From: a virus
DNA length: 13,815 bases
Direction: 5' to 3' (one strand)
Virus genome (UHGV): UHGV-0045964
The position numbers were made by a program, and so were the translations under genes. Each line of letters starts with the position of its first letter. Position 1 is the stretch's first letter. Below are positions 1 to 6,610 of the stretch, in pieces. Under the pieces are notes generated by a model. That model saw only the letters and a list, made by a program, of their open reading frames with translations. It ran no database searches and had not been told where the DNA came from.

Positions 1-35
1 TAAAGGGTAATATATAACAGAAGGTTTATATAGTT

Positions 36-107
36 AGAAGCAAGGTTGTGCTTCTAAAGGAAGTGGCTTGAGGGAGCCACTTATATGTTGGGGAGGCAAC
101 GCCTCCC
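36..107 (-). terminator. Cluster of three perfect 7-bp hairpins just 3' of the porin stop; putative porin terminator region
   Basis: Inverted repeats agaagca/tgcttct (36-42/49-55), agtggct/agccact (62-68/75-81) and gggaggc/gcctccc (91-97/101-107), each with a 3-6 nt loop. Only the middle hairpin is followed by a U-rich tract on the minus strand, so the terminator assignment is tentative. Confidence 0.3.
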
Positions 108-132
108 GCAACATATCTTTTTCGTAATCAGA

Positions 133-1215
133 TTAGAACTGATACACCAGACCTACAGCGACGATGTCGTCGGTATCAATACCAGCTGTTTTGGTAAACT
201 TACTATCGTCAATTAAGTTGATTTTGTAATCAACAAAAGTGGACATGTTTTTATTAAAGTAGTAAGTAGCACCGACATCGACATACTTGACTAAGTCTCG
301 GTCACCATGAACACCAAGGTCTTTACCTTTTGACTGAAGGTAAGCAACAGATGGACGCAGACCGAAGTCAAACTGATATTGTGCTACTGCTTCAAAGTTT
401 TGTGCTTTGTTTGCAATATGGTTATTACCAAAAACGGTCATATTCTGAGTTTCAGAATATGTGGTAGCCAGATAGATATTGTTCGCATCATATTTCAGGC
501 CTGCAGCCCATACTTCCGCATTTTTGCCGGAGGCATTGAATTTGCTCTTACCATAGGCGACCTGACCGTCAGTGCGATCTGATTTAGCATAGGTTGCACC
601 CACGCCGAATCCTTCATACTCATAAGTAGCGGAGAAACCGAAACCATCACCATTGGCTTCAGTTACGTCAGTGCGGTCATTTTTACCCTGATACTGAGCA
701 GCAAAGTTCAGGCCATCGACCAGACCAAAGAAGTCGTTGTTACGATAAGTTGCAACACCAGTAGTGCGACCAGTCATGAACACATCTGTTTGGGTCCAGG
801 TATCACCACCGAATTCTGGCAGAACGTCAGTCCACGCACCGATGTCGTATGCTACACCGTAGTTACGGCCGTAATCGATTGAGCCGTAATCACCAAATTT
901 CAGGCCTGCAAATGCAAGACGGGTTTTGTCTTTGGAAGAACCTTGAGATTCAGCGCGGTTGCCTTTGAATTCATATTCCCACTGACCGAAACCAGTCAGT
1001 TGATCGTTGATTTGGGTTTCACCTTTGAAGCCAAGACGGGCATAAGTAGTATCACCATCATCTGCATCATTAGAGGAGAAGTAGTGCTTAGCATTAACTT
1101 TCCCGTACAGATCCAGCTTGTTACTGTCTTTATTATAAATTTCAGCTGCCTGAGCAGACATCGCCATCAGTACTGATGCAGCTACAGCAGAAATTGCCAC
1201 TGTTAATTTTTTCAT
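133..1215 (-). CDS. nmpC: Prophage-borne OmpC/OmpF-family general porin (NmpC/Lc-like), intact 360-aa precursor
   Basis: Minus-strand ORF. Start taken at ATG 1215..1213 (signal peptide [23 protein letters not shown], then AEIYNKD) rather than the upstream in-frame Met of the ORF track. Porin hallmarks include the C-terminal ...VGLVYQF; stop TAA at 135..133. Position on the opposite strand directly upstream of the lysis genes matches the nmpC/lc moron slot of DLP12/PA-2-type phages. Confidence 0.9.
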
Positions 1216-1642
1216 CGTGAGCCCTTTTTTTGAACTATTATTAAAAAATGATGTCACTGCGCGATAAATATTCATCTAATCAATGTGATTATTTCAAGAT
1301 GTAAGTTTTGGTTTCTCGTTTGATTTGTGAAGTAGATCTCTATTTTTATCTGAACTTTTTTCTATCGAATCCTATTCATGGCTCTTGGCTGAATAAAAAT
1401 AAATCTATTAGCCAATTTATATTAATGGCTGTTATTTATAAGTGCTCTATAATTTGAAGGTTCAATTTAAATCGGCTAAAAATAACGCTGGAAATTATTT
1501 GTTGGTTATTTGTTGAGATTTGCTTATGTATTTGTAGTGGTGTTTTCAATACTCGGTAGCATTCTCGCAAATATCATTTAGTGGTTTACGTACGTAAAAA
1601 ATTGGTTATGCTGTTAAGAGTGGTTACTTCGTCACACAGCTT

Positions 1643-1672
1643 AAACCCGCCGTCGAGCGGGTTTTTCCATTT
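1643..1672 (+). terminator. Intrinsic terminator upstream of the lysis cassette (tR'-like)
   Basis: Hairpin aaacccgc / loop cgtcga / gcgggttt followed by TTTTTCCATTTTTT, about 120 bp upstream of the holin start. Confidence 0.5.
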
Positions 1673-1787
1673 TTTGAGTCTCGATATTAGCTGATAACCC
1701 AATACCTGAGTTATTCACTGACTCCGAGTCTGTTACGTTTCGTAGTATTCCCTCAATTTACACCCGCTTTGTCTGCGAGGTGGGGTT

Positions 1788-2003
1788 ATGAAATCCATGG
1801 ATAAGTTAACAACGGGTGTCGCCTATGGCACCTCAGCAGGTAGTGCCGGGTACTGGTTTTTACAGCTGCTAGATAAAGTCACGCCCTCACAGTGGGCGGC
1901 AATTGGAGTGCTGGGTAGCCTGGTATTTGGCCTGCTGACGTACCTGACAAACCTTTATTTCAAGATTAAAGAAGATAAGCGCAAGGCTGCGAGAGGTGAA
2001 TAA
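1788..2003 (+). CDS. essD: Class II holin, phage 21 S21-type pinholin (71 aa) with dual-start motif
   Basis: Translation [26 protein letters not shown]...[15 protein letters not shown] matches the S21 pinholin family. Met1-Lys2-Ser3-Met4 gives the antiholin/holin dual start; two TMDs and a basic C-terminus; RBS gaggtgggg upstream; stop overlaps the endolysin start (TAATG). Confidence 0.9.
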
Positions 2004-2500
2004 TGCCTCCATCATTACGAAAAGCCGTTGCTGCTGCTATTGGTGGCGGAGCAATTGCTATAGCATCAGTGTTAATTACTGGCCCAAGTGGTAACGATGG
2101 TCTGGAAGGTGTCAGCTACATACCATACAAAGATATTGTTGGTGTATGGACTGTATGTCACGGGCATACAGGAAAAGACATCATGCTCGGTAAAACGTAT
2201 ACCAAAGCAGAATGCAAAGCACTCTTGAATAAAGACCTTGCCACTGTCGCCAGACAAATTAACCCGTACATCAAAGTCGATATACCGGAAACAACGCGCG
2301 GCGCTCTTTACTCATTCGTTTACAACGTGGGTGCTGGCAATTTCAGAACATCGACGCTTCTTCGCAAAATAAACCAGGGCGATATCAAAGGCGCATGTGA
2401 TCAGCTACGTCGCTGGACATATGCTGGCGGTAAGCAATGGAAAGGTCTCATGACTCGTCGTGAGATTGAGCGTGAAATCTGTTTGTGGGGTCAGCAATGA
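2003..2500 (+). CDS. rrrD: SAR (signal-anchor-release) endolysin, phage 21 R21-type lysozyme (165 aa)
   Basis: N-terminal Gly/Ala-rich weakly hydrophobic SAR segment ([20 protein letters not shown]) followed by a T4-lysozyme-like catalytic region (E...D...T in [16 protein letters not shown]); near-identical to R21 by recognition. Stop TGA overlaps the Rz start (ATGA). Confidence 0.9.
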
Positions 2501-2958
2501 ACAGAGTAACCGCGATTATCTCCGCTCTGGTTATCTGCATCATCGTCTGCCTGTCATGGGCTGTTAATCATTACCGTGATAACGCCATTACCTACAAAGC
2601 CCAGCGCGACAAAAATGCCAGAGAACTGAAGCTGGCGAACGCGGCAATTACTGACATGCAGATGCGTCAGCGTGATGTTGCTGCGCTCGATGCAAAATAC
2701 ACGAAGGAGTTAGCTGATGCGAAAGCTGAAAATGATGCTCTGCGTGATGATGTTGCCGCTGGTCGTCGTCGGTTGCACATCAAAGCAGTCTGTCAGTCAG
2801 TGCGTGAAGCCACCACCGCCTCCGGCGTGGATAATGCAGCCTCCCCCCGACTGGCAGACACCGCTGAACGGGATTATTTCACCCTCAGAGAGAGGCTGAT
2901 CACTATGCAAAAACAACTGGAAGGAACCCAGAAGTATATTAATGAGCAGTGCAGATAG
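2497..2958 (+). CDS. Rz: Rz i-spanin (inner-membrane spanin subunit), lambda-type, 153 aa
   Basis: [29 protein letters not shown]... with N-terminal TMD and coiled-coil periplasmic domain; essentially lambda Rz by recognition. ATG 2497 preferred over GTG 2485 of the ORF track. Confidence 0.9.
2717..2899 (+). CDS. Rz1: Rz1 o-spanin (outer-membrane lipoprotein), nested in the +1 frame inside Rz
   Basis: 60-aa ORF wholly inside Rz in another frame; perfect SD aaggag 7 nt upstream; lipobox LVVVG|C; proline-rich mature part ([15 protein letters not shown]) as in lambda Rz1. Confidence 0.88.
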
Positions 2959-2989
2959 AGCTGCCCATATCGATGGGCAACTCATGCAA

Positions 2990-3283
2990 TTATTGTGAGC
3001 AATACACACGCGCTTCCAGCGGAGTATAAATGCCTAAAGTAATAAAACCGAGAAATCCATTTACGAATGTTTGCTGGGTTTCTGTTTTAACAACATTTTC
3101 TGCGCCGCCACAAATTTTGGCTGCATCAACAGTTTTCTCCTGTCCAATTCCCGAAACGAAGAAATGATGGGTGATGGTTTCCTTTGGTGTTACTGCTGTC
3201 GGTTTGTTTCCAACAGTAAACGTCTGTTGAGCACATCCTGTAATAAGCATTGCCAGAGCGGCAGAAAACAACATTTTTTTCAT
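2990..3283 (-). CDS. bor: Bor lipoprotein (serum-resistance / Iss-family outer-membrane lipoprotein), 97 aa
   Basis: Start taken at MKKMLFSAALAMLITG|CAQQ (lipobox) = ATG 3283..3281, not the longer ORF-track start at 3331; C-terminus ...EARVYCSQ; near-identical to lambda Bor by recognition. Confidence 0.9.
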   Translation of the reverse strand: MKKMLFSAALAMLITGCAQQTFTVGNKPTAVTPKETITHHFFVSGIGQEKTVDAAKICGGAENVVKTETQQTFVNGFLGFITLGIYTPLEARVYCSQ

Positions 3284-3464
3284 CTTATTATCCTGCATTG
3301 TTAAAAACGGCAGAATCCTATGTGACAACAATTAAACGATAGTTAAATGGATTGATGAAAATTAAAACTATATAGGTGGATGCTCAGCCTATTGGAGGAG
3401 GGGGGGGCACTCAGAATCCTGTGGAATGAAATAAACCGCTCTATCTGTCCATTACCCTTTTAGC

Positions 3465-3574
3465 TGCGCTGTATCGTCGCCGTATTCCCGCATTAACCAT
3501 GACCGTAGCCCGACGGGGAATTCCTTCTGCGTGAGTGTGCGGGAATAATCAAAAACGATGCACACCGGGTTTTA
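3465..3574. repeat. Conserved non-coding element, copy 1 (between bor and the ylcI-like gene); diverged copy at 5123..5233
   Basis: About 110 bp alignable to 5123..5233 with scattered substitutions; no ORF in either copy; contains a 10-bp inverted repeat tattcccgca (3483-3492) / tgcgggaata (3538-3547). Weaker similarity continues to about 3644. Confidence 0.7.
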
Positions 3575-3644
3575 CTGTGCTGACAGACGCAGGGTTACCC
3601 TCATAGTCGCTTTTCCGGTGCGATGGTGGAAGAAACCGGGATGT

Positions 3645-3839
3645 TCATCCATCATCACTTTGGATTGATGTATATGCTCTCTTTTCTGACGTTAGTCTCC
3701 GACGGCAGGCTTCAATGACCCAGGCTGAGAAATTCCCGGACCCTTTTTGCTCAAGAGCGATGTTAATTTGTTCAATCATTTGGTTAGGAAAGCGGATGTT
3801 GCGGGTTGTTGTTCTGCGGGTTCTGTTCTTTGTTGACAT
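3645..3839 (-). CDS. ylcI: Small YlcI-like (DUF3950) protein, 64 aa, possible ribbon-helix-helix DNA binder
   Basis: MSTKNRTRRTTTRNIRFPNQMIEQINIALEQKGSGNFSAWVIEACRRRL...; ATG at 3839..3837, stop at 3647..3645. Position just upstream of cos/Nu1 matches ylcI-nohD in DLP12. The RHH assignment is inferred from the basic N-terminus and Arc/MetJ-like pattern. Confidence 0.7.
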   Translation of the reverse strand: MSTKNRTRRTTTRNIRFPNQMIEQINIALEQKGSGNFSAWVIEACRRRLTSEKRAYTSIQSDDG

Positions 3840-4002
3840 GAGGTTGCCCCGTATTCAGTGTCGCTGATTTGTATTGTCTGAAGTTGTTTTTACGTTAAGT
3901 TGATGCAGATCAATTAATACGATACCTGCGTCATAATTGATTATTTGACGTGGTTTGATGGCGTAGATGCACGTTGTGACATGTAGATGATAATTATTAT
4001 CA

Positions 4003-4177
4003 TTTTGCGGGTCCTTTCCGGCGATCCGACAGGTTACGGGGCGGCGACCTCGCGGGTTTTCGCTATTTATGAAAATTTTCCGGCTTAAGGCGTTTCCGTT
4101 CTTCTTCGCCGTAACTTCATGTTTTTATTTAAAACACCCCCTAAAAAGAAAGGAAACGACAGGTGCTGAAAACGGGC
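4003..4177 (+). other. cos: cos site copy 1 (cosQ-proximal region, cosN, cosB sites R3-I1-R2), cut off by the scaffold gap before R1
   Basis: Lambda junction ...ccgacaggttacg|gggcggcgacct... with the 12-nt cohesive-end sequence GGGCGGCGACCT at 4039..4050; gpNu1 R-site motifs cgtttccgttct (R3) and inverted gaaaggaaacgacag (R2). Sequence stops at the N run 4178..4187. Confidence 0.85.
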
Positions 4178-4259
4178 NNNNNNNNNNTTAGTGCTGGCGA
4201 GCCTCGGTGGGCTGGTTTCCTGTGCGGCAAAGGTTCATTTCAAAGAGTAGGTACACGCT

Positions 4260-4757
4260 ATGAAATCATTAACCCTCTTCAATCAACCAATTCGTATCGG
4301 TGAAGATGGCATGATCTGCCTCACTGATATGTGGAAAGCCAGTGGTAAAAGTGAATCTGAATCGCCTTACCACTACCTGCGAAACAAGCAGACCAAAGAG
4401 TTCTTAGCCGAGCTGGAGAAAAACCACGAATCTGTGGTTTTTACTGAGCGCGGTGTACACGGTGGAACATATGGCGGGAAGTTTGTTGCTTACGATTATG
4501 CGGCTTGGTTAAACCCCGGGTTCAAGTACGCGGCCTATAAAGTCCTCGATGACTACTTCACCGGAGAACTTCAGCATCGCAACAGCTTAAGTGCGCAGCT
4601 CAACATGAAATGTCATGAGTTTGACCAGAAGAAAGACATGGCGAGCTTCTGCGGACAAGGGCTGGCAGCATGGCGCTATACGAAGCCAGTGTTGGTCGCT
4701 GAGATTAACTCCCTGGCTAACCAGCTGCAGATTACGATCCCCGGGCTTCCGGGATGA
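4260..4757 (+). CDS. KilA-N domain protein (165 aa), function unknown
   Basis: KilA-N/APSES-like signature ...VFTERGVHGGTYGGKFVAYDYAAWLNPGFKYAAYKVLDDYF...; no fused C-terminal Bro/ANT domain; stop overlaps the next ORF start (ATGA at 4754-4757). Confidence 0.75.
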   Translation: MKSLTLFNQPIRIGEDGMICLTDMWKASGKSESESPYHYLRNKQTKEFLAELEKNHESVVFTERGVHGGTYGGKFVAYDYAAWLNPGFKYAAYKVLDDYFTGELQHRNSLSAQLNMKCHEFDQKKDMASFCGQGLAAWRYTKPVLVAEINSLANQLQITIPGLPG

Positions 4758-5011
4758 GTGATCGTGTTATTGAATGCGCCTCCAGAGCGGGGCGCGACTT
4801 CTCAGAGTTCATGAAAGGCGAGAAGGGCATGATGGAAGCATTGGCCTCGGTGGATGAGTTTGGCGAGCAGCTGCGCCTCAACGGCTGTGTCAATCATCAC
4901 TTTGTTAGCTACATGATGCGGAACTCGATCATGCAGGCATTCATGGACATGGCAAAAGCCGAGAGGAAAGAAGAGCGCCGGCGTAAGCGAGCGGAAGCAA
5001 AAGCGAAGTAG
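4754..5011 (+). CDS. Hypothetical 85-aa protein, Met-rich with a strongly basic C-terminal tail, translationally coupled to the KilA-N gene
   Basis: ORF MSDRVIECASRAGRDFSEFMKGEKGMMEALASVDEFGEQLRLNGCVNHHFVSYMMRNSIMQAFMDMAKAERKEERRRKRAEAKAK; ATGA overlap with the upstream gene; a weak hairpin plus T-run follows (gggata...tatccc tttt, 5065-5090). Not recognised as any known family. Confidence 0.55.
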   Translation: MSDRVIECASRAGRDFSEFMKGEKGMMEALASVDEFGEQLRLNGCVNHHFVSYMMRNSIMQAFMDMAKAERKEERRRKRAEAKAK

Positions 5012-5122
5012 CCATTACAAAGCCTATCTACGGGTGGGCTTTGATAATGGCTTATACCCTACACGGGATAACTTAACTGATATCCCTTTTAAAGGATAAA
5101 GGTATTCAAGCCTGACACATCA

Positions 5123-5233
5123 TGCGCTGTATCGTCGCCGTATTCCCGTATTAACAGAGACCATAGCCCGACGGGGAACTCTTTCTGCGCGAGTGTGCGG
5201 GAATAATCAAAAACGATGCACACCGGGTTTTTA
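5123..5233. repeat. Conserved non-coding element, copy 2 (upstream of the second cos)
   Basis: Diverged copy of 3465..3574; inverted repeat retained as tattcccgta (5141-5150) / tgcgggaata (5196-5205), where the single arm change turns a G-C pair into a G-U wobble. Confidence 0.7.
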
Positions 5234-5332
5234 CCGCGTTTATGGTTCGCGGGTTTGTCCCTCATGCTCGCCAGTCCTGTGCGAGGGTGGAAGAAACCGG
5301 ATATTAATGCAAGTGATAAACATTCTCATTTT

Positions 5333-5533
5333 CTCGGGTCCTTTCCGGCGATCTGACAGGCTACGGGGCGGCGACCTCGCGGTTTTTCGCTATTTATGAA
5401 AATTTTCCGGTTTAAGGCGTTTCCGTTCTTCTTCGTCGTAACTTAATGTTTTTATTTAAAATACCCCCTGAAAAGAAAGGAAACGACAGGTGCTGAAAAC
5501 GGGCTTTTTGGCCTCTGTCGTTTCCTTTCTCTG
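5333..5533 (+). other. cos: cos site copy 2, complete (cosN, cosB with R3, I1-like AT-rich region, R2, R1)
   Basis: ...ctgacaggctacg|gggcggcgacct...; cosN 12-mer at 5366..5377; R-site motifs cgtttccgttct (about 5418-5430), gaaaggaaacgacag (about 5476-5490, inverted) and ctgtcgtttcctttctctg (5515-5533); Nu1 start follows at 5555. Confidence 0.88.
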
Positions 5534-5554
5534 TTTTTGGCCGTGGAATGAACA

Positions 5555-5726
5555 ATGGAAGTCAACAAAAAGCAGCTGGCTGACATTTTCGGCGCGAGTA
5601 TCCGTACCATTCAGAACTGGCAGGAGCAGGGAATGCCCGTTCTGCGGGGTGGTGGTAAGGGTAATGAGGTGCTTTATGATTCTGCCGCCGTCATAAAATG
5701 GTATGCCGAAAGGGATGCTGAAATTG
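5555..5726 (+). CDS. nu1: Terminase small subunit gpNu1, N-terminal piece (fragment 1 of 3; runs into the N gap)
   Basis: MEVNKKQLADIFGASIRTIQNWQEQGMPVLRGGGKGNEVLYDSAAVIKWYAERDAEI, the winged-HTH cosB-binding domain of lambda Nu1; ATG at 5555 as in lambda. Confidence 0.85.
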
Positions 5727-5736
5727 NNNNNNNNNN

Positions 5737-6231
5737 AAGTCAACAAAAAGCAGCTGGCTGACATTTTCGGTGCGAGTATCCGTACCATTCAGAACTGGCA
5801 GGAACAGGGAATGCCCGTTCTGCGAGGCGGTGGCAAGGGTAATGAGGTGCTTTATGACTCTGCCGCCGTTATAAAATGGTATGCCGAAAGGGATGCTGAA
5901 ATTGAGAACGAAAAGCTGCGCCGGGAGGTTGAAGAACTGCGGCAGGCCCGCGAGGCAGATCTCCAGCCAGGGACTATTGAGTACGAACGCCATCGACTTA
6001 CGCGTGCGCAGGCCGACGCACAGGAACTGAAGAATGCCAGAGACTCCGCTGAAGTGGTGGAAACCGCATTCTGTACTTTCGTGCTGTCGCGGATCGCAGG
6101 TGAAATTGCCAGTATTCTCGACGGGATCCCCCTGTCGGTGCAGCGGCGTTTTCCGGAACTGGAAAACCGACATGTTGATTTCCTGAAACGGGATATCATC
6201 AAAGCCATGAACAAAGCAGCCGCGCTGGATG
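5737..6231 (+). CDS. nu1: Terminase small subunit gpNu1, second allele fragment (residues about 3-166); overlaps fragment 1
   Basis: Restarts at ...aagtcaacaaaaag (codon 3) in frame 0. The 167-bp overlap with 5560-5726 differs at 7 positions, all synonymous third-base changes. Continues ...ENEKLRREVEELRQAREADLQPGTIEYERHRL... to the N run at 6232. Confidence 0.85.
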
Positions 6232-6241
6232 NNNNNNNNNN

Positions 6242-6610
6242 GAAAAGCTGCGCCGGGAGGTTGAAGAACTGCGGCTGGCCAGCGAGGCAGATCTTCACCC
6301 CGGAACACTTGAATTTGAGCGCCATCGCCTGACTCGTGCTCAGGCGACGGCGCAGGAACTGAAAAATGCCAAAGAATCGGCTGAAGTGGTGGAAACCGCA
6401 TTCTGTACTTTCGTGCTGTCGCGTATAGCAAGGGAAATATCCAGTATTCTCGACGGTATTCCTCTGTCGGTGCAGCGACGTTTTCCTGAGCTGGATAACC
6501 GGCATATTGATTTCCTGAAACGGGATATTATCAAAGCCATGAACAAAGCAGCCGCGCTGGATGAACTGATACCGGGGTTGCTGAGTGAATATATCGAACA
6601 GTCAGGTTGA
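6242..6610 (+). CDS. nu1: Terminase small subunit gpNu1, C-terminal fragment of a divergent allele, with stop
   Basis: EKLRREVEELRLASEADLHPGTLEFERHRLTRAQATAQELKNAKESAEVVETAF...ELIPGLLSEYIEQSG*; stop TGA 6608-6610; overlaps 5909-6231 with several amino-acid differences. Confidence 0.85.
   Translation, partial: EKLRREVEELRLASEADLHPGTLEFERHRLTRAQATAQELKNAKESAEVVETAFCTFVLSRIAREISSILDGIPLSVQRRFPELDNRHIDFLKRDIIKAMNKAAALDELIPGLLSEYIEQSG

Follow-up and report, generated by a model that had tools for sequence, protein, structure and literature searches.

Two Rz-to-cos accessory regions from lambda-like prophages of Escherichia coli, placed back to back in a scaffold and probably differing by ordinary lambdoid mosaicism

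Lambda-like phages host optional genes in a region that lies after the lysis genes and before the packaging site. The stretch of DNA analysed here (the window, 13,815 nucleotides of UHGV virus genome UHGV-0045964) carries two versions of this region one after the other. The part treated is 3284-5533, which we divide into "arm 1" (up to 4177) and "arm 2" (from 4188), and we call the prophages behind them P1 and P2. The features are collected in Table 1. Each region has the same frame: Rz, a left variable site (site L), a conserved segment of ~175 nt, a right variable site (site R), cosQ/cosN/cosB and then nu1. In P1, site L holds Bor/Iss and site R holds YlcI; in P2, site L holds a KilA-N/ORF11CD3 protein together with orf85, and site R is empty. 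Both arms are lysis-cassette-to-cos accessory regions by their position, from Rz/Rz1 to cos/nu1, and by a content that varies between syntenic phages.

Table 1. Features of the two arms, with positions in the window and the evidence for each.
Feature	Position	Strand	Evidence
Rz (RzpD-type i-spanin)	2497-2958	+	Pfam Phage_lysis E 3e-54; RefSeq rzpD at matching position of NZ_CP146681.1
bor/iss lipoprotein gene, left-site cargo of arm 1	2990-3283	-	Pfam Lambda_Bor PF06291 E 6e-30; PHROG 260 E 1e-58; RefSeq name iss
Conserved segment, copy 1	3465-3639	.	Repeat families and alignments; homologous to lambda 46865-46974 and the DLP12 borD-ybcV spacer
Hairpin HP1	outer stem 3470-3477/3555-3562; inner stem 3483-3492/3538-3547	.	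Pair counts
Hairpin HP3	3615-3619/3635-3639	.	Pair counts
ylcI (YlcI/YnfO, DUF3950), right-site cargo of arm 1	3645-3839	-	Pfam DUF3950 E 2e-20; NCBIfam NF041551
cos of P1 (cosQ, cosN, part of cosB; ends at contig end)	3988-4177	+	93.4% identical to lambda cos
10-N scaffold gap, arm 1/arm 2 join	4178-4187	.	Flanking contigs map 300 kb apart in NZ_CP146681.1
KilA-N/ORF11CD3 protein gene, left-site cargo of arm 2	4260-4757	+	Pfam KilA-N E 1e-15, ORF11CD3 E 2e-13; PHROG 129 "transcriptional regulator"
85-aa ORF (orf85)	4754-5011	+	PHROG 875, full length, E 3e-54
Conserved segment, copy 2	5123-5300	.	Repeat family and alignment
cos of P2	5314-5554	+	92.2% identical to lambda cos
nu1 5' part (terminase small subunit) of P2, to contig end	5555-5726	+	Pfam Phage_Nu1 E 1.5e-33; RefSeq annotation

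In arm 1 the accessory region is bounded on the left by Rz, within which the Rz1 ORF is embedded (2717-2899). The Bor/Iss protein matches PF06291 over its full length (103.7 bits against a cutoff of 25), its N-terminus, MKKMLFSAALAMLITGC, contains the lipobox LITGC, and the GC content of its gene is ~40-43%, compared with 47-52% in the lysis genes. YlcI scores 72.8 bits with Pfam DUF3950 (cutoff 25) and 37.6 bits with NCBIfam NF041551 (cutoff 30), and has no relatives among PDB sequences. The DNA found only in arm 1 runs from 3640 to 3987 and comprises ylcI with the sequence upstream of it; the corresponding stretch of arm 2 is 13 nt long.

The two genes of arm 2 form a compact cassette. In the closed genome discussed below the KilA-N gene follows Rz after 200 nt, and the ATG of orf85 overlaps its stop codon. 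Both domains of the KilA-N protein exceed the Pfam gathering scores (KilA-N 57.6 versus 23.8 bits, ORF11CD3 50.5 versus 25). No relatives of it were found among PDB sequences; orf85 has no match in Pfam, PDB sequences or PADLOC. A search of the cargo proteins against the PADLOC models of known anti-phage defence systems assigned none of them to such a system: the sole match was a partial one, of 30 residues, between the KilA-N domain and the candidate model PDC-S22, and the other proteins gave none. The GC content of this pair (46-55%) is not distinct from that of neighbouring phage genes. The orf85 gene accompanies KilA-N in most KilA-N-bearing slots, including those of Stx2 phages and of phage PhiR49_1, and KilA-N occurs without it at three loci. 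We infer that the KilA-N/ORF11CD3 protein is a Rha/antirepressor-like DNA-binding regulator, and that Bor is a serum-resistance lipoprotein expressed from the prophage. A preliminary description of this DNA, made from the sequence alone, had given the order of arm 1 as bor(-), conserved element, ylcI-like(-), cos, and that of arm 2 as KilA-N(+), 85-aa ORF(+), the same element, cos, with neither bor nor ylcI. The first order is borne out by the gene calls (Pfam, PHROGs, NCBIfam) and the repeat matches, the second by the gene calls and by tblastn, which finds bor and ylcI absent from arm 2.

Each arm does end in a lambda-type cos, as had been claimed. The 12-nt cohesive end GGGCGGCGACCT lies at 4039-4050 in arm 1 and at 5366-5377 in arm 2, identical in both arms and to lambda. 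The surroundings share 92-93% identity with lambda over ~260 nt, and nu1 opens with an ATG at 5555. In arm 2, cosN comes just 65 nt after the end of the conserved segment, the shortest version that we have seen. Empty right sites carry several distinct spacer sequences, with lengths of 65, 87, 116 and 119 nt.

Three stretches are repeated between the arms, namely 3465-3572 versus 5123-5230 (92.6% identity), 3598-3638 versus 5259-5299 (83%) and 3988-4177 versus 5314-5504 (about 94%), and these repeats are far above chance (blastn E 3e-50 and 6e-104). The preliminary description had placed a cargo breakpoint near 3574/5233. Alignment moves it: the drop in identity at 3573/5231 is a diverged patch, 25 nt long in arm 1 (3573-3597) and 28 nt in arm 2, internal to a homology that is continuous over 3465-3639/5123-5300, and the actual junctions are 3465/5123 and 3639/5300. 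Arm 2 had been seen to pick up again with the sequence just 3' of the arm 1 ylcI stop codon. The second of the repeats includes ggtggaagaaaccgg, at 5286-5300 and at 3625-3639, in arm 1 5 nt past that stop.

The conserved segment is widespread. It is present in lambda (in the bor-lambdap78 interval), in DLP12, in Stx1 and Stx2 phages and in most lambda-type slots, and it occurs independently of the flanking cargo or the type of terminase. In a sample of 56 Rz-to-Nu1 intervals, anchored on Nu1 and chosen independently of the segment, it is found in 50 and absent from 6. A scan of genome contigs for divergent copies added no diversity, as it recovered mostly lambda DNA contaminating unrelated assemblies and a few Escherichia/Raoultella matches.

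How do two such regions come to lie next to each other? Read as given, with the arms adjacent and in the same orientation, the window could be collinear with the genome, that is, a single prophage with a tandem duplication, two cos sites and both cargo sets. The junction is, however, an N10 gap, and the window as a whole is a scaffold in which 13 such gaps of 10 N each join 14 contigs. On the closed chromosome of E. coli MS 196-1 (NZ_CP146681.1), arm 1 (1-4177) matches 3454805-3458981 and the arm 2 contig (4188-5726) matches 3153035-3154573, each at 99.9% identity. The arms thus lie ~300 kb apart there, in two separate lambdoid prophages. RefSeq annotation places arm 1 after essD/rrrD/rzpD and before nohD in P1, and arm 2 after holin/YdfR/lysozyme/Rz and before nu1 in P2. 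Each sits directly between Rz and nu1, with one cos and, after it, a complete terminase and head module, and the later contigs of the window switch back and forth between the two prophages. The collinear reading is already contradicted by this layout and we consider it extremely improbable. Neighbouring contig ends share overlaps of 100-175 nt at 93-97% identity, and this bubble-like pattern might suggest that the arms are alleles of one locus, assembled from a mixed culture or a heterogeneous population. Yet both versions occupy distinct positions within one closed genome, and the early and lysis genes differ between the two prophages, so that this explanation too is very improbable. It is the adjacency of the arms alone that is artificial, a product of draft-assembly scaffolding, and at 99.9% identity the source strain would be MS 196-1 or a near-identical one. 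The arms, first described as neighbours, are therefore better seen as contigs from two prophages set side by side. A worry voiced at the outset, that arm 2 might be a mis-join away from any lysis cassette or cos, is answered by the closed genome, where Rz and nu1 flank it.

The preliminary description had also seen two alternative cargo sets in one slot. Comparison of the slot across related lambdoid prophages, which it had proposed as a check, lists multiple cargo variants on both sides of the segment and replaces this picture with two independent sites. The left site may contain nothing, Bor, KilA-N with orf85, Rha-type proteins, DUF6979 or a T5orf172 protein, while the right site may contain nothing, YlcI, YbcV with YlcI, YbcV with YbcW and YlcI, a TonB_C lipoprotein or an SDH protease. 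In IMG/VR, 53 loci are bounded by both Rz and a lambda-type Nu1, and these show 14 different left-by-right combinations. Other genomes and phages have KilA-N with the orf and both YbcV and YlcI, KilA-N with the orf alone, or KilA-N with the orf and YlcI; in this last slot the left side is 94% identical to arm 2 and the right side 98.6% identical to arm 1. Bor is also seen with an empty right site. The contents of the left and right sites assort freely, and the non-coding segment does border sites of accessory-gene difference, as had been suggested.

The lambda region Rz-bor-lambdap78-lambdap79-cos and the K-12 DLP12 region rzpD-borD-ybcV-ybcW-ylcI-nohD have the same order of Rz, bor(-), segment, minus-strand accessory genes, cos and nu1. 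Arm 1 shares 89-90% identity with lambda and DLP12 over Rz-bor and 96-97% over ylcI-cos, but lacks the ~1.1-kb block of ybcV/lambdap78 and ybcW/lambdap79. Arm 2, unlike either, is without bor, ybcV, ybcW and ylcI and carries KilA-N/ORF11CD3 and orf85 instead. The same cassette is found in Escherichia phage PhiR49_1 (PV340568), where the two genes lie right after Rz and are followed by the segment (99.9% to arm 2); this phage, unlike arm 2, has YbcV and a YlcI-like gene ahead of nu1. The Stx2 phages 1717, 2851 and Stx2a_WGPS4 share the arrangement at 95%, although in Stx2a_WGPS4 a small ORF, an HNH DNase and another type of terminase come after the segment. A further likeness is with the Rha/ORF11CD3 and Rha "antirepressor" genes at the ends of lambdoid lysis cassettes. 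These occupy the same left site and share the upstream leader and the C-terminal ORF11CD3 domain with the KilA-N gene, but have Phage_pRha as N-terminal DNA-binding domain instead of KilA-N, a domain swap.

Our preferred reading, to which we give a probability of roughly 0.88, is that 3284-5533 contains the Rz-cos moron regions of two lambda-like prophages of one E. coli strain, back to back through scaffolding, whose differences arose by ordinary lambdoid mosaicism. Lambdoid phages that reside in the same cell or infect it would shuffle the modules by homologous recombination, with Red/Rad52-like recombinases and RecA as the probable mediators of exchange. Crossovers would fall in the shared stretches (the 3' end of Rz, the conserved segment, and cos/nu1) and simple insertions and deletions would contribute as well; together these would lead the contents of sites L and R to assort independently. 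A good example is phage Stx2a_F403, in which the 5' part of the segment is identical to lambda (81/81) and the 3' part to Stx2_4151 (118/118), a clean crossover inside the segment. De Paepe et al. 2014 (PMC3945230) have shown experimentally that lambda captures DLP12 ybcV::Kan by homologous recombination across the Rz-cos-nu1 region, and 10 of their 19 sequenced recombinant junctions immediately adjoin cos. Homologous exchange accounts for the shuffling of modules, not for the first entry of each cargo. The distinct spacers of the empty right sites point to independent deletions or insertions, not necessarily homologous events.

These regions also resemble the moron concept (Juhala et al. 2000, reviewed in PMC3594210), that is, optional genes between conserved essential modules. 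The likeness to this concept and to the exchanges of De Paepe et al. 2014 extends to the low GC content of bor, exchange through flanking homology and junctions near cos. Consensus scans for sigma-70 promoters gave no candidate whose strand and position would suit bor, ylcI or KilA-N, nor did scans find a terminator-like site placed after any of these genes, in which they differ from that concept; promoter-like sites are about as numerous as in shuffled sequence. A classic moron is an independent transcription unit with its own promoter and terminator, expressed in the lysogen. By that definition these cargoes are candidate morons. The KilA-N and orf85 genes, which are read in the direction of the late operon, may simply be co-transcribed with the late genes.

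The persistence of the conserved segment invites other explanations. RefSeq annotates a 58-aa CDS over copy 2 (WP_001205134.1, 5089-5265, minus strand), as do some phage records over the segment, and a minus-strand ORF of at least 45 aa covers it in 72 of 127 loci, so the segment might encode a small protein conserved as a gene. The frame argues otherwise. The start codon and N-terminus vary between variants (93-, 58- and 54-aa forms), arm 1 retains only a 37-codon GTG ORF, the frame is changed by a 1-nt deletion in lambda and an indel in DLP12, and in one variant an in-frame TAA stop codon interrupts it. Most of the substitutions that separate the two main haplotypes are non-synonymous, and there is no match in Pfam, PHROG, NCBIfam or PADLOC. 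With a frame that is not conserved and no family matches, we rejected this candidate as very unlikely; the CDS over copy 2 is probably spurious. Could the segment instead be a functional cis-element under selection, a structured RNA on the plus strand (the sense of the late transcript), with its use as recombination homology a by-product? It is kept in lambda, DLP12, the Stx1/Stx2 phages and most lambda-type slots whatever cargo or terminase flanks it, and it forms nested hairpins. In these, 97.2% of cells are paired versus 28-56% with the partners slid, although the low diversity and relatedness of the sequences mean that the shuffle control overstates the support, and for most sequences the 3' arms were partly fixed by the search pattern used to collect them. 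Compensatory changes are seen at two pairs, one of which is C:G in the arm type and G:C in the lambda type, while the other, in HP3, goes from G:C to U:A; no more than these 2 of 23 pairs covary. Most one-sided changes lead to G:U on the plus strand and would be A.C mismatches on the minus strand, and pairing in the inner helix reaches 98.4% on the plus strand versus 90.6% on the minus. On the other hand, plus-strand folding energies are no better than those of shuffled sequence (z -0.5 to -1.7), the very common Stx2a variant has acquired a G.G mismatch through the crossover, the lambda/DLP12 type lacks the middle hairpin, the segment is missing from the 6 slots counted above, and it has no Rfam family and no clear terminator. 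We regard selection for such an RNA element as possible but unlikely.

In an Rfam 15 scan of 1-6300 at E<=1 the only two matches (E 0.15 and 0.28) were at chance level, well short of the gathering scores, and neither lay in the segment. Of the known prophage sRNAs (Pas, AgvB, AsxR, Esr41 and STnc100), those listed in Rfam have no match in the window, and Pas sRNA genes adjoin the holin/lysozyme operon, upstream near Q and not in the Rz-cos interval. An intrinsic terminator was rejected as well, the scans having found none in the segment and the middle hairpin being without a U-tract and absent from the lambda type. An RNA element at this place might serve transcript processing or stability, or stand as a transcription barrier where the lysis and packaging modules meet. 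Rather doubtfully, then, we raise the idea of a conserved structured RNA of the late transcript, absent from Rfam, which marks the lysis/packaging boundary and perhaps acts as a processing/stability signal or as a barrier to non-antiterminated transcription. The RNA-element reading is compatible with ordinary mosaicism as the main explanation.

Ordinary lambdoid mosaicism is thus the reading that we retain, and the moron finding is real but ordinary and already known. The preliminary description was right that accessory genes differ here between phages, and the crossover within the segment is real; this is nevertheless established lambdoid biology and no new observation. The closed genome already contains both arms, resolved and annotated. 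For those who interpret genomes there is a caution, as the apparent layout with "two arms, two cos sites" is an artefact that scaffolding has made of a genome with several lysogenic lambdoid prophages. The hairpins of the segment, with their compensatory changes, are the only lead, and a mildly new one, and the role of the conserved spacer in lambda itself is possibly the sole new question. If the RNA element is real, its selective upkeep would explain why this spot became a recombination hinge for accessory genes. In summary, the two arms illustrate cleanly the differences that lambdoid prophages of one cell show at two small variable sites for fitness or regulatory genes (Bor/Iss, KilA-N/Rha-type regulators, YlcI and YbcV), with a short conserved spacer and cos as the hinges for exchange.

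The junction between the two arms of the window, arm 1 (up to 4177, prophage P1) and arm 2 (4188-5533, prophage P2), is not a feature of the bacterial genome. Thirteen runs of exactly ten N divide the 13,815-base window into 14 contigs. In a repeat comparison, the end of nearly every contig recurs at the start of the next one (100-175 nt, 93-97% identical), a pattern that marks a draft scaffold built by stringing near-identical, unresolved repeats in series. The arm 1/arm 2 region spans the first gap (4178-4187). Contig 1-4177 corresponds to 3,454,805-3,458,981 of the closed E. coli MS 196-1 chromosome (NZ_CP146681.1) and contig 4188-5726 to 3,153,035-3,154,573, each at 99.9% identity; with the loci about 300 kb apart, their adjacency is an assembly artefact. 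Later contigs of the window come alternately from the two prophages or fit one about as well as the other. The contigs alternate between two or more near-identical lambdoid prophages, and the apparent duplications of nu1, A, portal, protease or capsid segments further downstream are the same scaffolding artefact.

Both loci are already annotated in the closed genome. Around arm 1, RefSeq lists quuD, porin, essD, rrrD, rzpD, iss, ylcI and nohD, then terminase, portal and capsid genes; around arm 2, the order is Q, HNH, holin, YdfR, lysozyme, Rz, KilA-N, a hypothetical 85-aa protein (orf85), a hypothetical 58-aa protein (minus strand), terminase small subunit, terminase, portal and capsid genes. 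As this order places arm 2 between a lysis cassette and cos, it had not been mis-joined away from them, a possibility raised in the preliminary description. The P1 cassette has a P21-type holin (PF04971) and a lysozyme whose hydrophobic N-terminus suggests a SAR endolysin, and that of P2 has a class II holin, YdfR and lysozyme; the cassettes being unlike, the prophages differ in lysis modules as well as cargo. P1 also carries an intact OmpC/NmpC-type porin gene, another classic lambdoid accessory gene, placed after the Q antiterminator region and before the holin; in K-12 DLP12, IS5 interrupts nmpC.

Features of the two arms (window positions; paired ranges are arm 1 vs arm 2)
Feature	Position	Strand	Evidence or remark
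Porin gene (P1)	133-1275	-	
Lysis cassette (P1)	1788-2500		
Bor/Iss	2990-3283	-	Pfam PF06291, E 6e-30; PHROG 260
G8 homopolymer	about 3399-3406		
Block 1	3465-3572 vs 5123-5230		92.6% identity
Block 2			diverged patch, 25 nt vs 28 nt
Block 3	3598-3638 vs 5259-5299		83% identity; contains ggtggaagaaaccgg
YlcI/YnfO	3645-3839	-	DUF3950, E 2e-20; NCBIfam above cutoff
Block 4	3988-4177 vs 5314-5504		~94% identity
Cohesive end GGGCGGCGACCT	4039-4050 vs 5366-5377		
KilA-N + ORF11CD3 domain protein	4260-4757	+	domain matches
orf85	4754-5011	+	PHROG 875 full length, E 3e-54
58-aa hypothetical CDS WP_001205134.1	5089-5265	-	RefSeq, across the conserved segment
nu1 ATG	5555		
Starts of N10 gaps	4178, 5727, 6232, 6859, 7139, 10057, 10253, 10725, 11190, 11527, 12440, 13513, 13679		

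The arm contents first proposed, bor and a ylcI-like gene in arm 1 and KilA-N with an 85-aa ORF in arm 2, were borne out by Pfam, PHROG and NCBIfam matches. The start of orf85, which had no match in Pfam, overlaps the stop codon of the KilA-N gene. The non-coding repeat common to both arms is also real, and gapped alignment resolves it into four blocks. What had been taken for a breakpoint at 3574/5233 is an internal low-identity patch within one continuous segment of about 175 nt, not a cargo junction. Between blocks 3 and 4, arm 1 has 348 unique nucleotides (ylcI and upstream DNA) and arm 2 has 13. Both arms do end in a lambda-type cos with its cohesive end, 92-93% identical to lambda cos.

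In lambda the segment matches 46865-46974, the spacer between bor and lambdap78, and in DLP12 it is the spacer between borD and ybcV. Arm 1 is the lambda/DLP12 arrangement without the ~1.1-kb ybcV-ybcW block. Arm 2 has KilA-N and orf85 in bor's place and nothing of the segment-to-cosQ content except 65 nt, the shortest spacer between segment and cos of all empty right sites compared. Whichever minus-strand gene comes next, the GGAAGAAACCGG motif is found directly past its stop codon. This comparison defines the slot frame as Rz, a left variable site, the segment, a right variable site and cos.

A scan of IMG/VR with a core motif of the segment gave 120 loci, whose cargo was assigned by mapping marker proteins and by Pfam annotation of the remaining ORFs. 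The left site holds nothing (86-400 nt), Bor, KilA-N/ORF11CD3 with orf85, Rha or Rha/ORF11CD3 proteins, a DUF6979 protein or a T5orf172/MUG113 protein. The right site holds nothing, YlcI, YbcV+YlcI, YbcV+YbcW+YlcI, lambdap78+YbcW+YlcI, a TonB_C lipoprotein block or a ClpP-like SDH protease block; in Stx phages other terminase types directly follow the segment. Fourteen left-by-right combinations occur among the 53 IMG/VR loci bounded by Rz and lambda-type Nu1, among them an empty right site beside Bor, and KilA-N+orf85 together with either YlcI or YbcV+YlcI. The last of these, KilA-N+orf+YbcV+YlcI, is also found in E. coli strain CUPS04 and phage PhiR49_1. KilA-N+orf+YlcI occurs in E. coli strain 2017-02-2CC, whose slot shares 94% identity with arm 2 in its left part and 98.6% with arm 1 in its right part. 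Comparing the slot across IMG/VR loci, E. coli genomes and isolated phages, as had been suggested, yields a list of cargo variants, and these combinations show modules at two independent sites rather than two exclusive sets in one slot. The Rha-type proteins in the left site of three loci (L014, L078 and L009) share with window 4188-4757 an upstream leader and the C-terminal ORF11CD3 domain of the KilA-N protein; it looks as if the N-terminal DNA-binding domain has been swapped on a common frame.

What the segment itself does was also considered. It has no Rfam match, and a scan found no convincing promoter or terminator in it. The 58-aa CDS across it is probably spurious; its frame is interrupted or cut short in arm 1, in lambda and DLP12, and in a TAA-stop variant, and it has no family matches. 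That the segment is a functional RNA element seems to us unlikely, although it has nested inverted repeats, and the proposed helices are 97.2% paired on 31 distinct variants (28-56% with the partners slid). Compensatory changes at two pairs, and one-sided changes that mostly give G:U pairs on the plus strand, the late-operon sense strand, also speak for such an element. However, plus-strand folding energies are not unusual, the variants differ little from one another, one pair is mismatched in the common Stx2a chimera, and not all types have the middle hairpin. The segment is also missing from six slots, being present in 50 of 56 Rz-to-Nu1 intervals in a sample anchored on Nu1 and independent of the segment. 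G-runs inside it vary in length, up to G10, in some IMG/VR copies, and a G8 run lies between bor and the segment; the variable lengths could be sequencing noise or slippage-prone tracts.

Apart from a few Escherichia/Raoultella matches, a search of genome_contigs for more divergent copies yielded nothing beyond lambda contaminants of unrelated assemblies. These contaminants (L214-L248) are contigs with 99.8% or more identity to phage lambda in Pseudomonas, Cohnella, Kitasatospora, Flavobacterium, Pedobacter, Shewanella and several MAGs, some of ~48.4 kb (the whole lambda genome) and others of ~3.5 kb (lambda 45042-48488). They have the look of control or spike-in DNA that has entered public genomes as contamination, and the shorter piece resembles the nanopore control amplicon.

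Exchange of modules at the two sites is a known phenomenon. Both the moron concept and the role of Bor, a serum-resistance lipoprotein made from the prophage, are well established (PMC3594210, PMC7067206). Experimentally, homologous recombination over the Rz-cos-nu1 region was shown to pass a ybcV::Kan marker from DLP12 to lambda, at high frequency and with junctions concentrated beside cos (De Paepe et al. 2014, PMC3945230). The segment of Stx2a_F403 (2990-3195) is, on its sequence, a clean chimera with the crossover inside the segment, its 5′ part matching lambda (81/81) and its 3′ part another Stx2 phage (118/118). The spacers at empty right sites come in several forms, which suggests that deletions or insertions occurred independently there. 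The interpretation in the preliminary description is partly supported and stands in spirit, but it erred in treating the arms as neighbours, the cargoes as mutually exclusive and 3574/5233 as the breakpoint. Ordinary lambdoid mosaicism best explains the slot, with common stretches acting as exchange hinges and local insertions and deletions supplying further variation.
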